From: Clostridiaceae bacterium | GTDB taxonomy: Bacteria; Bacillota; Clostridia; Christensenellales; CAG-917 | Length of the DNA stretch: 64,000 bases | Assembly (NCBI GenBank): GCA_031289315.1 | Contig: JAITPR010000048.1 | Location: 1,085 to 65,084, forward strand | Direction: 5' to 3' | Shown here: positions 32,593 to 34,229 of the stretch, piece after piece | How the letters are laid out: each line of letters begins with the position of its first letter | Numbering within the stretch: position 1 is the first letter of the stretch | The notes under the pieces: model-generated | The model's database searches: none | What the model was told of the DNA's origin: nothing | What the model saw: the letters and a program-made list of their open reading frames with translations, nothing else | Made by a program: the position numbers and the translations under genes

Positions 32593-32630
32593 ACTGCGGC
32601 GCGTCGGGATACGGCGTAACGGTGTAAATT

Positions 32631-34229
32631 TTGATATACGGGAATACCGACGGAATTAAAAGAACTGTGCTTGACGCTTTGGAAAAGCTTCAAACCGCAT
32701 ACGATAGGAGCCTCTTTGTCGACAGAGAGGTTCTTCGTTTTATTGTTGCGTTGACATCGAAGATAAACCGCGAAATATGCGTGTTCATATCACGCGCCGG
32801 CGCGGTTATATCCGTGGGAATAGGTGACAGCTCGTCCGTACCGCTGCAAAATATCGACTTAAAACGCGCCACAAATAAATTTACCGGTGTACGTTGCGTG
32901 CATACTCACCCCAACGGTACGGGGGAGTTGAGCGACCTTGATATAAGCTCACTTAAAAAACTGCGTCTTGACTGTATGTGCGCGGTAGGCGTTTTAAACG
33001 GTGAAAGCCGCGATGTTTCCGTGGCGTATTCCGATGCGAACGAGGTCAAAACCTACCGCTACCGCTCCGTGTCGCGGCTTCCGGACGAGGATTTACTGTC
33101 TAGAATAACCGAATTCGAAGGGCATATCACGACGAAGCCTAAAAAGGAAAAGCTTAAAAAATCCGCCGTATTGGTTTCCGTCGCTCCGTCGGACGTAGGC
33201 GCGGACGCGGCGCTTAAGGAGCTTGCCGGGCTTGCGGATACCGCCGGGTTAGAGATAGTCGGAGAGGTGCTTCAAATACGCAGTAAGCCTGACAAAGCCT
33301 TTTGTGCCGGGCAGGGCAAGGTCGACGAGATAAAGCGTTTGGCGCAGGTAAAGGACGCGGACTACGTAATTTTCAACAACGCGTTGTCGGGCAGTCAGCT
33401 TTCACGATTGGAAGAAACGCTGTGTTTGGACGTACTGGATCGCGCCATGCTCATCTTAGACATCTTTTCACACCATGCGGAAACGCAGGAGGGCAAGCTT
33501 CAGGTGGAGCTTGCGAGGTTGAAATACACGTTACCTAAGCTTATGGGGCAAGGAAAAGCCTTGTCAAGGATAGGCGGCGGCGGGGGAAGCGGCGCGTACA
33601 CTAAGGGCTCCGGCGAAACAAAGCTTGAAACGGATCGCCGTCATATCAGAGCCGCCATATACGAGCTTTCGGAGCGCATAGACAAGCTGAAGACAGAACG
33701 CGATATGCGCCGTTCCCGTCGCGAAAAAAGCGGTATAAAAACCGTGGCGATAGTCGGCTACACAAATGCCGGCAAGTCCACGCTCATGAACGCGTTGTCA
33801 AAGGCGGGCGTAAAAGAGGAAAACAAACTGTTCGCTACGCTTGACCCCGTGACGCGGCGGATATTTGTCGACGTAAATAAAGAGTATTTGCTTACGGATA
33901 CCGTCGGTTTTATAGACAATCTCCCACATGAGCTCATAGACGCTTTCCGGTCGACGCTTGACGAAACGCGTTACGCGGATCTGTTGCTGCATGTGGCGGA
34001 TGCCTCCTCCATCGACGCGGAGCGTCAATTCGACGTGGTACGCAAGGTCTTAGACGAGCTGGGCGTCGGGGATAAGCCGATAATAACCGTGTATAACAAA
34101 ATAGATATGCTGTCACCGAACACGGATTTTATGCCGCAGATTTTGGTAGATAGCACACGTATTTCGGCTAAAACCGGTGAAGGAATTGCCGAACTTAAAC
34201 GGCTCATAGCCGAAAAATTGTTTTTATAA
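32631..34229 (+). CDS. hflX: GTPase HflX with a ~175-aa N-terminal extension
   Basis: 532 aa with a TTG start. The HflX N-domain begins at about aa 178. G motifs GYTNAGKST, DTVGF and NKID are present. The extension contains HTHPNGTGELSDLD. Confidence 0.88.
   Translation: MIYGNTDGIKRTVLDALEKLQTAYDRSLFVDREVLRFIVALTSKINREICVFISRAGAVISVGIGDSSSVPLQNIDLKRATNKFTGVRCVHTHPNGTGELSDLDISSLKKLRLDCMCAVGVLNGESRDVSVAYSDANEVKTYRYRSVSRLPDEDLLSRITEFEGHITTKPKKEKLKKSAVLVSVAPSDVGADAALKELAGLADTAGLEIVGEVLQIRSKPDKAFCAGQGKVDEIKRLAQVKDADYVIFNNALSGSQLSRLEETLCLDVLDRAMLILDIFSHHAETQEGKLQVELARLKYTLPKLMGQGKALSRIGGGGGSGAYTKGSGETKLETDRRHIRAAIYELSERIDKLKTERDMRRSRREKSGIKTVAIVGYTNAGKSTLMNALSKAGVKEENKLFATLDPVTRRIFVDVNKEYLLTDTVGFIDNLPHELIDAFRSTLDETRYADLLLHVADASSIDAERQFDVVRKVLDELGVGDKPIITVYNKIDMLSPNTDFMPQILVDSTRISAKTGEGIAELKRLIAEKLFL

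Follow-up and report, generated by a model that had tools for sequence, protein, structure and literature searches.

A RadC-like JAB domain is predicted at the N-terminus of HflX in Clostridia and their relatives

HflX is a GTPase that binds the 50S ribosomal subunit on its intersubunit side and, when ribosomes are stalled or idle, splits them or keeps their subunits apart; it has been studied as a ribosome-splitting, heat-stress and macrolide/lincosamide-tolerance factor. Here we describe the hflX gene in a 64,000-nucleotide stretch of DNA (the window) from a Clostridiaceae bacterium of the Christensenellales (GenBank assembly GCA_031289315.1, contig JAITPR010000048.1, positions 1,085 to 65,084 of the forward strand). 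Its product, called JAB-HflX below, carries ahead of a canonical HflX an extension with an intact JAMM zinc-binding motif, and from sequence comparisons and predicted structures we conclude that this extension is a divergent, RadC-like member of the JAB superfamily, lying outside the RadC family proper. Two known domains, HflX and JAB, are thus, as read from the sequence, joined in an undescribed architecture. To our knowledge, all structures and biochemistry of HflX come from short forms, those of E. coli, Listeria and Staphylococcus, or from the mycobacterial short-extension form. Full-text searches of the literature found no paper linking HflX to JAB, JAMM, MPN or isopeptidase, which agrees with a preliminary description of this DNA, made from the letters alone, that knew of no such fusion as a characterised architecture. 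N-terminal HflX extensions have been noted in ‘several Clostridium spp.’ in a review, which says nothing more of them (PMC12493154). The extension is annotated in neither Pfam nor NCBIfam, and NCBIfam holds no model of it.

The JAMM motif, EXnHS/THX7SXXD, was defined on AfJAMM (PMC300881). JAB-HflX matches EXnH(S/T)HX7SXXD exactly, the full pattern being E-x42-H-T-H-x7-S-x2-D. The peptide HTHPNGTGELSDLDIS is encoded at 32901-32948 of the window, with coordinates and letters just as the preliminary description had given them for its H-x-H-x7-S-x2-D signature, and the codons of the four key residues within it are 32901-32903 (H91), 32907-32909 (H93), 32931-32933 (S101) and 32940-32942 (D104). 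The Glu that had been placed about 42 residues upstream, in NREICVF, is E48 (32772-32774), with 42 residues between it and H91. A single occurrence of such a pattern is not significant in itself: among the open frames of at least 150 aa in this genome, composition predicts 0.73 occurrences of H.H.{7}S..D and four are observed, of which three are JAB-type proteins (JAB-HflX, RadC and a 176-aa HSHP...S..D protein). It is the invariance of the motif across homologues that gives it significance.

A word-indexed search scored on residues 1-177 returned 40 HflX-length proteins, and in all 25 of the homologues aligned E48, R55, G57, G65, R88, H91, T92, H93, P94, G96, L100, S101, D104 and D114 are invariant. 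A genome scan, whose pattern imposed HTHP and left S..D free, located at least 597 species loci; the best 80 were analysed, and every one of them has H.H.{7}S..D at residue 90-92 and a single continuous open reading frame (ORF), about 520-617 aa long. An unbiased search through 1.84 billion representatives with phmmer found 519 matches at E<=1e-3, the top 148 of which keep H.H.{7}S..D in 147 cases. The 150 matches listed are fragments or proteins of about 520-650 aa, nearly all with the domain at the N-terminus, and HflX domains were confirmed by Pfam in the three phmmer-found proteins scanned. Columns H91, T92, H93, P94, G96, S101 and D104 are invariant across the alignments made. Conservation in homologous extensions, which the preliminary description had proposed as a check, therefore holds in all three sets, and these comparisons confirm the JAMM pattern as a non-chance, conserved feature of a domain. 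The mean majority fraction is 0.66 in the JAB core (residues 46-122), as against 0.63 in the HflX N-domain, 0.68 in the helical domain and 0.61 in the G domain, and falls to 0.35 in the helix and linker (146-178), the least conserved stretch of the protein. At the level of aligned sequences, purifying selection on the JAB domain is shown to be as strong as on the HflX domains.

The same conservation bears on whether the extension is a protein at all. It might instead be an untranslated or mis-called 5' region that contains the motif by chance, with the true start of HflX near residue 179; the TTG start with a weak Shine-Dalgarno sequence, and an automated gene call (P0002, 520 aa) that begins 12 codons further 3', can be cited for this. 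We find the idea scarcely credible, however, because conservation at the protein level spans the whole extension down to residues 4-5, and the ORF is continuous at all 80 loci. G4 and N5 are at least 90% conserved in an alignment of 53 sequences, which also argues against the later start of P0002, and the aligned start position is a Met in homologues (MIYGNT...). From the TTG to the JAMM motif the frame contains no ATG, and the first internal Met is M116, within the JAB-like domain itself. An in-frame TAA at 32625-32627, two codons 5' of the TTG, makes 32631 the most upstream start possible in the hflX frame, and the comparisons support the TTG at this position as the start. The preliminary description, which had expected an extension of about 175 residues, probably translated and lacking an ATG ahead of the motif, is borne out on each count, the length being 178 residues by the TIGR03156 boundary (HflX comprising residues 179-530). 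Promoter-like and terminator-like sites that might separate the JAB and HflX parts occur at the level of shuffled sequence. A 13-pair hairpin followed by a T-rich run at 32706-32735 was considered as a terminator; it lies within the conserved coding region (codons 26-38) and is regarded as chance.

Profile comparisons place the extension near, and outside, the known JAB families. When 53 members were scanned against Pfam, Prok-JAB was matched in 32 (best E 0.0017) and RadC-JAB in 25 (best E 4.6e-4), with all other families matched three times or fewer each. The window protein alone matches only RadC-JAB among the JAB families (E 0.013, 15.8 bits, cut-off 22.1). In the profile comparison that the preliminary description had proposed, the matches are thus concentrated in two JAB families and are weak, with no JAB model reaching its curated cut-off. 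An hhalign comparison with an alignment of 22 genuine RadC-JAB domains, taken from this genome and from its relatives, gave E 1.4e-4, with the HTHPNG...S..D columns aligned to HNHPSG...S..D, and so upholds the likeness to the RadC/JAB pattern HNHPSGxxxPSxxD that had been pointed out. Membership of the RadC family proper was considered and rejected: the score is below the cut-off, the RadC invariants T87 and D103-H104 have no counterpart among the invariant columns, and the genome has a separate, normal RadC elsewhere (112.6 bits). Searches of PDB sequences with the N-terminal domain, by phmmer or profile, returned only noise or marginal matches (RecA concatemers, S19, AMSH-LP) and are not used as support.

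An AlphaFold model of the N-terminal domain, built with 53 sequences, has a predicted local distance difference test score (pLDDT) of 85.8 and a predicted template modelling score (pTM) of 0.82. It comprises a helix (32-45), strands 49-54 and 58-64, a 22-residue loop, a strand carrying HxH (87-93), a helix carrying S..D (102-110) and strands 115-122, 125-134 and 139-144. This order of elements agrees with what we take to be that of AfJAMM, the comparison being one of order and not a superposition of the two structures. A Foldseek search of the model against BFVD gave 13 matches at E<=1e-3 with probability 1.00, the best at E about 1e-5 (phage RadC/JAB proteins); all strong matches with informative names are RadC or JAB (‘RadC DNA repair proteins’, ‘RadC-like JAB domain containing protein’), and a ‘JAB domain-containing protein’ follows at E 2.7e-3. 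Against the PDB the best match is RadC 2qlc (E 0.012, probability 0.87), and a Mov34 MPN domain ranks fourth. Structural comparison, likewise proposed in the preliminary description, is thus significant for RadC/JAB in BFVD and falls short in the PDB. On the predicted structure, the extension has a JAB/MPN fold. The full-length model has a pLDDT of 86.0 and a pTM of 0.77, with the linker at about 74, and residues 1-10 are modelled with higher confidence in the full-length protein than in the isolated domain; this last point and the high full-length pTM suggest that the JAB domain packs against the rest of the HflX protein.

RadC-JAB (PF04002; Chlorobium tepidum RadC, 2qlc) is the best PDB match by Foldseek, among the best named BFVD matches and the best hhalign partner tested. 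The resemblance extends from the motif (HTHPNGxxxLSxxD here, HNHPSGxxxPSxxD in RadC) to its setting, with the upstream Glu opening a strand and an Asp in the strand after the motif helix. Unlike RadC, the extension lacks the RadC N-terminal region and the RadC-specific T and DH columns, and has the 22-residue loop where RadC has a helix. It also resembles the minimal prokaryotic and archaeal JAMM/MPN+ enzymes (AfJAMM, 1R5X; Prok-JAB, PF14464) in its complete EXnH(S/T)HX7SXXD motif and in the weak Prok-JAB matches of 32 of the 53 members. It differs from them in that these matches are sub-threshold (best E 0.0017), in having no MoaD/ThiS/SAMP-like neighbours, and in being fused to a translational GTPase where those enzymes stand alone.

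The HflX part of the protein is ordinary. The NCBIfam HflX equivalog TIGR03156 is matched over residues 179-530 with 427.6 bits (cut-off 216.75), in line with the preliminary description, which had identified HflX and set its N-domain near residue 178, and the Pfam families GTP-bdg_N, GTP-bdg_M and MMR_HSR1 fall within the same residues. The nucleotide-binding motifs G1-G5 are intact (GYTNAGKS, DTVG, NKID, SAK), and the matching columns are invariant. In these residues JAB-HflX is like the canonical HflX of E. coli and the HflX/HflXr of Listeria, an equivalog with an intact G domain. In the window clade, unlike canonical HflX, the C-terminal domain is lacking: the protein ends two residues past the TIGR03156 match and G domain, the match to NF008280, the E. 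coli-type model, stops at position 361 of 426, and HflX_C (PF19275) gave no Pfam match in the window protein. That domain is common in HflX and not defining. It has also gone from the window's family (open frames of 529-560 aa) and from two other families (522-559 aa), while most JAB-HflX proteins are of 585-620 aa and retain it. The window's hflX is the sole HflX gene in the 2.18-Mb, 89.6%-complete genome.

We suggest the following function for the domain. H91, H93 and D104 would hold a zinc ion, while E48 would activate water and S101 would stabilise the intermediate, as in AfJAMM. In mycobacterial HflX, an N-terminal extension of 39-58 residues touches uL16 and H38 and extends as far as the H69-H71 junction (PMC12493154), which indicates where an N-terminal HflX appendage should sit on the 50S subunit. 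JAB-HflX shares with the mycobacterial protein the extra sequence before the N-domain (PMC12493154), differing in that this is not a short peptide but a folded, enzyme-like domain of about 145 residues with a linker. By binding, HflX would place the putative active site on the side of the 50S subunit where the A-site finger, uL16 and H69-H71 lie, and there the domain may hydrolyse an amide (peptide or isopeptide) bond of a ribosome-bound substrate during rescue, with the nascent chain, a ribosomal protein tail and a bound factor as candidates. It may also add a binding or wedge function without catalysis, which would explain why dead forms are kept in a few lineages. Taken together, the domain would be an amide hydrolase, dependent on zinc, which HflX carries to the 50S intersubunit face and which acts on a ribosome-bound peptide or protein in rescue, with a binding or wedge role besides; we hold this reading with roughly even confidence. 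Carriers of JAB-HflX probably bring a second, putative enzyme activity to the ribosome.

Several results weigh against this reading. Every JAB model of Pfam and NCBIfam stays below its curated threshold, the best score of the window protein being the 15.8 bits given above against 22.1; the hhalign probability to RadC-JAB is just 53%, over 56 columns; a profile search of PDB sequences reached AMSH-LP, an AMSH-type JAMM protein, at an E of about 0.5; and Foldseek TM-scores are 0.3-0.46, with no PDB match at E<=1e-3. No partner gene was found beside JAB-HflX, there being no flanking gene family common to more than 14 of the 81 loci compared (the 80 loci and the window). At least 6 of the 59 genomes positive for the domain in a phylum-wide sample, in three families, keep it with the catalytic residues replaced, so that catalysis, as judged from these sequences, is dispensable in some JAB-HflX lineages.

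The dead versions are the weakest matches of that sample (L126-L131, from G232, G162, G291, G228, G073 and G158), in which HflX keeps the domain and the catalytic residues are lost. HTH has become FTR in one family; in the second, E is replaced by K or N, HTH by YLT, and S..D is lost; in the third all catalytic residues are lost. These HflX-linked domains resemble an MPN-minus state. The coexistence of motif-intact and motif-dead versions of one domain recalls the eukaryotic MPN+/MPN- pairs Rpn11/Rpn8 and CSN5/CSN6, with the difference that the two versions here are orthologues of different lineages and not paired subunits, and have no ubiquitin-system context. In the representative library, outside the window, P0110 (869 aa) has an N-terminal LptE domain followed by four degenerate HflX-type JAB-like copies, all without HxH; its source is presumably a Gram-negative organism.

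Dead but retained domains mean that the domain must also have a role independent of catalysis, and that role could be the principal one. The domain would then be mainly a non-catalytic ribosome-binding or wedge module, a folded analogue of the mycobacterial extension with a structural metal site, helping to pry or keep the subunits apart or to remodel H68-H71. The three dead families, the four degenerate copies of P0110 and the packing onto HflX suggested by the high full-length pTM are all consistent with such a module, and the mycobacterial extension works without catalysis (PMC12493154). The dead versions, however, are the most divergent and belong to minority lineages, and E48 and S101, although they do not bind the metal in JAMM enzymes, are kept along with the ligands, unchanged in all alignments and in 147 of the 148 representatives. 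This speaks against a purely structural site, which would need neither residue, and we regard a mainly non-catalytic module as possible but rather unlikely.

The kinship with RadC suggests another substrate. As the nearest relative by both fold and profile is RadC, the domain might be a RadC-like JAB hydrolase acting on a nucleic-acid-linked substrate, which could be rRNA or the 3'-end ester or amide of a peptidyl- or aminoacyl-tRNA remaining on the 50S subunit after splitting. Next to the catalytic residues lie an invariant arginine, Arg88, and two that are nearly invariant, Arg47 and Arg55, the linker is Lys-rich, and HflX docks beside the peptidyl-transferase centre (PMC12493154). The conserved arginines are equally able to bind a carboxylate, or rRNA for docking alone, and we judge this alternative unlikely. 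It also counts against it that we know of no JAB domain with a demonstrated nuclease or esterase activity, RadC included.

A third alternative is that the domain is the deconjugating isopeptidase of a bacterial ubiquitin-like system (cf. Cap3, BilC and archaeal JAMM1) and strips a ubiquitin-like protein (Ubl) tag from ribosomal proteins; its JAMM motif is of the deubiquitinase type, and one BFVD match is annotated ‘Ubiquitin-like protein’. The gene neighbourhoods give this no support. No conserved flanking partner and no beta-grasp Ubl, E1 or E2 was found among the flanking families of the 81 loci, and in the window the neighbours are guaB, which ends 38 bp before hflX, and an Amidohydro_2 gene, which begins 19 bp after it. 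We consider a Ubl-deconjugating role very improbable, and the deconjugation (deubiquitinase-like) activity that the preliminary description had raised as a possibility finds no backing in the neighbourhoods. Flanking genes elsewhere are of what we take, from our own reading of their sequences, to be VanW-like, Nnr, RecX, YigZ, NUDIX, Hpt and NifS types, and the adjacency to guaB is local to this genome's group.

To return to an amide hydrolase carried to the 50S subunit by HflX, a bolder form of the proposal, which we consider distinctly unlikely, is a two-step rescue enzyme, in which the GTPase splits the stalled ribosome and the tethered zinc hydrolase then cleaves something still on the 50S subunit. 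That could be the nascent chain or its peptidyl-tRNA linkage, or else a hibernation or ribosomal-protein element bound there. Were this so, one protein would both dissociate and clear the large subunit, giving Clostridia and their relatives a route distinct from RqcH, ArfB and Pth.

A survey of HflX architectures, such as the preliminary description had proposed, took in 301 genomes sampled evenly from the phylum, 272 of them of high quality. HflX is present in 237 of the 301 and the JAB domain in 59, about a quarter of the HflX-bearing genomes (50 of the 272 high-quality genomes). Occurrence is consistent within families (e.g. 6/6, 7/7 and 6/8, as against many families at 0/n), and named carriers include Christensenellaceae, Christensenellales, Oscillospiraceae, Acetivibrio, Clostridium botulinum, C. 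sporogenes, Desnuesiella, Peptococcia and Negativicutes. Genomes with the JAB domain have exactly one HflX match each, with the domain in the HflX frame (59/59 in the phylum sample and 14/14 among the relatives of the window), and in the pairs compared (e.g. G139) only a few bases separate the JAB match from the HflX match, both being on one contig and strand. The JAB domain is absent from the five genomes that have two copies of HflX. JAB-HflX is therefore the orthologue itself, and the possibility that it is a paralogue added to a normal HflX is ruled out. Six genomes (G083, G125, G165, G234 and G318 of family f72, and G293) have HflX matches in open frames of 737-942 aa with no match to the JAB profile; these may carry a different large extension or may merely be long open frames.

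The window's own family and order were represented by 31 genomes. The JAB domain occurs in 14 of them, and HflX in exactly these 14. The remaining 17, with genome sizes of 1.1-3.2 Mb, lack this supposedly universal GTPase entirely, and 15 of these are 91-100% complete. One relative (G016) has a broken hflX copy, with split frames and a TAA. HflX has thus been lost repeatedly in this small-genome group.

JAB-like sequences were also observed apart from HflX. In the genome of the window, contig C39, which lies outside the window, carries the 176-aa open frame with HSHPETPARPSDED, a stand-alone JAMM-type protein about 29 kb from RadC and on the same strand. Another locus (L134, G123:C29) encodes a 478-aa predicted membrane protein whose C-terminal piece, HTHPSGIAKLSKAD, matches the HflX-type JAB profile at E 4e-8, and related JAB domains therefore exist outside HflX. 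The features of the JAB-HflX gene are collected in Table 1.

Table 1. Positions in the window of the JAB-HflX gene and its parts, with the basis of each assignment
Feature	Position	Strand	Basis and remarks
JAB-HflX gene	32631..34229	+	532 codons and stop, TTG start; ORF list and translation
GGTG, Shine-Dalgarno-like	32621..32624	+	6 nt 5' of the TTG; read from the sequence; weak alone, strengthened by the other evidence on the start codon
JAB/JAMM-like domain core, residues 1-145	32631..33065	+	AlphaFold, Foldseek, Pfam JAB-clan matches, hhalign
E48, predicted general base (E of EXnHS/THX7SXXD)	32772..32774	+	In NREICVF; invariant in three alignments; role inferred from AfJAMM (PMC300881)
H91-T-H93-P-N-G-x3-L-S101-x2-D104, predicted zinc ligands H91/H93/D104 and catalytic Ser S101	32901..32942	+	Invariant columns
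Helix 152-167 and Lys-rich linker, residues 146-178, JAB-to-HflX joint	33066..33164	+	Conservation 0.35; pLDDT about 74 in the full-length model
Canonical HflX, residues 179-530: N-domain, helical domain, G domain	33165..34220	+	TIGR03156; Pfam GTP-bdg_N, GTP-bdg_M, MMR_HSR1

If the domain is a working metallohydrolase, then in a quarter of the phylum's HflX-bearing genomes ribosome rescue would include a chemical cleavage step that has gone unexamined. The carriers affected would include many gut and rumen Clostridia, Christensenellales, Oscillospiraceae and Clostridium species, and the natural dead variants, together with the frequent loss of hflX in small-genome relatives, offer ready handles for comparative work.

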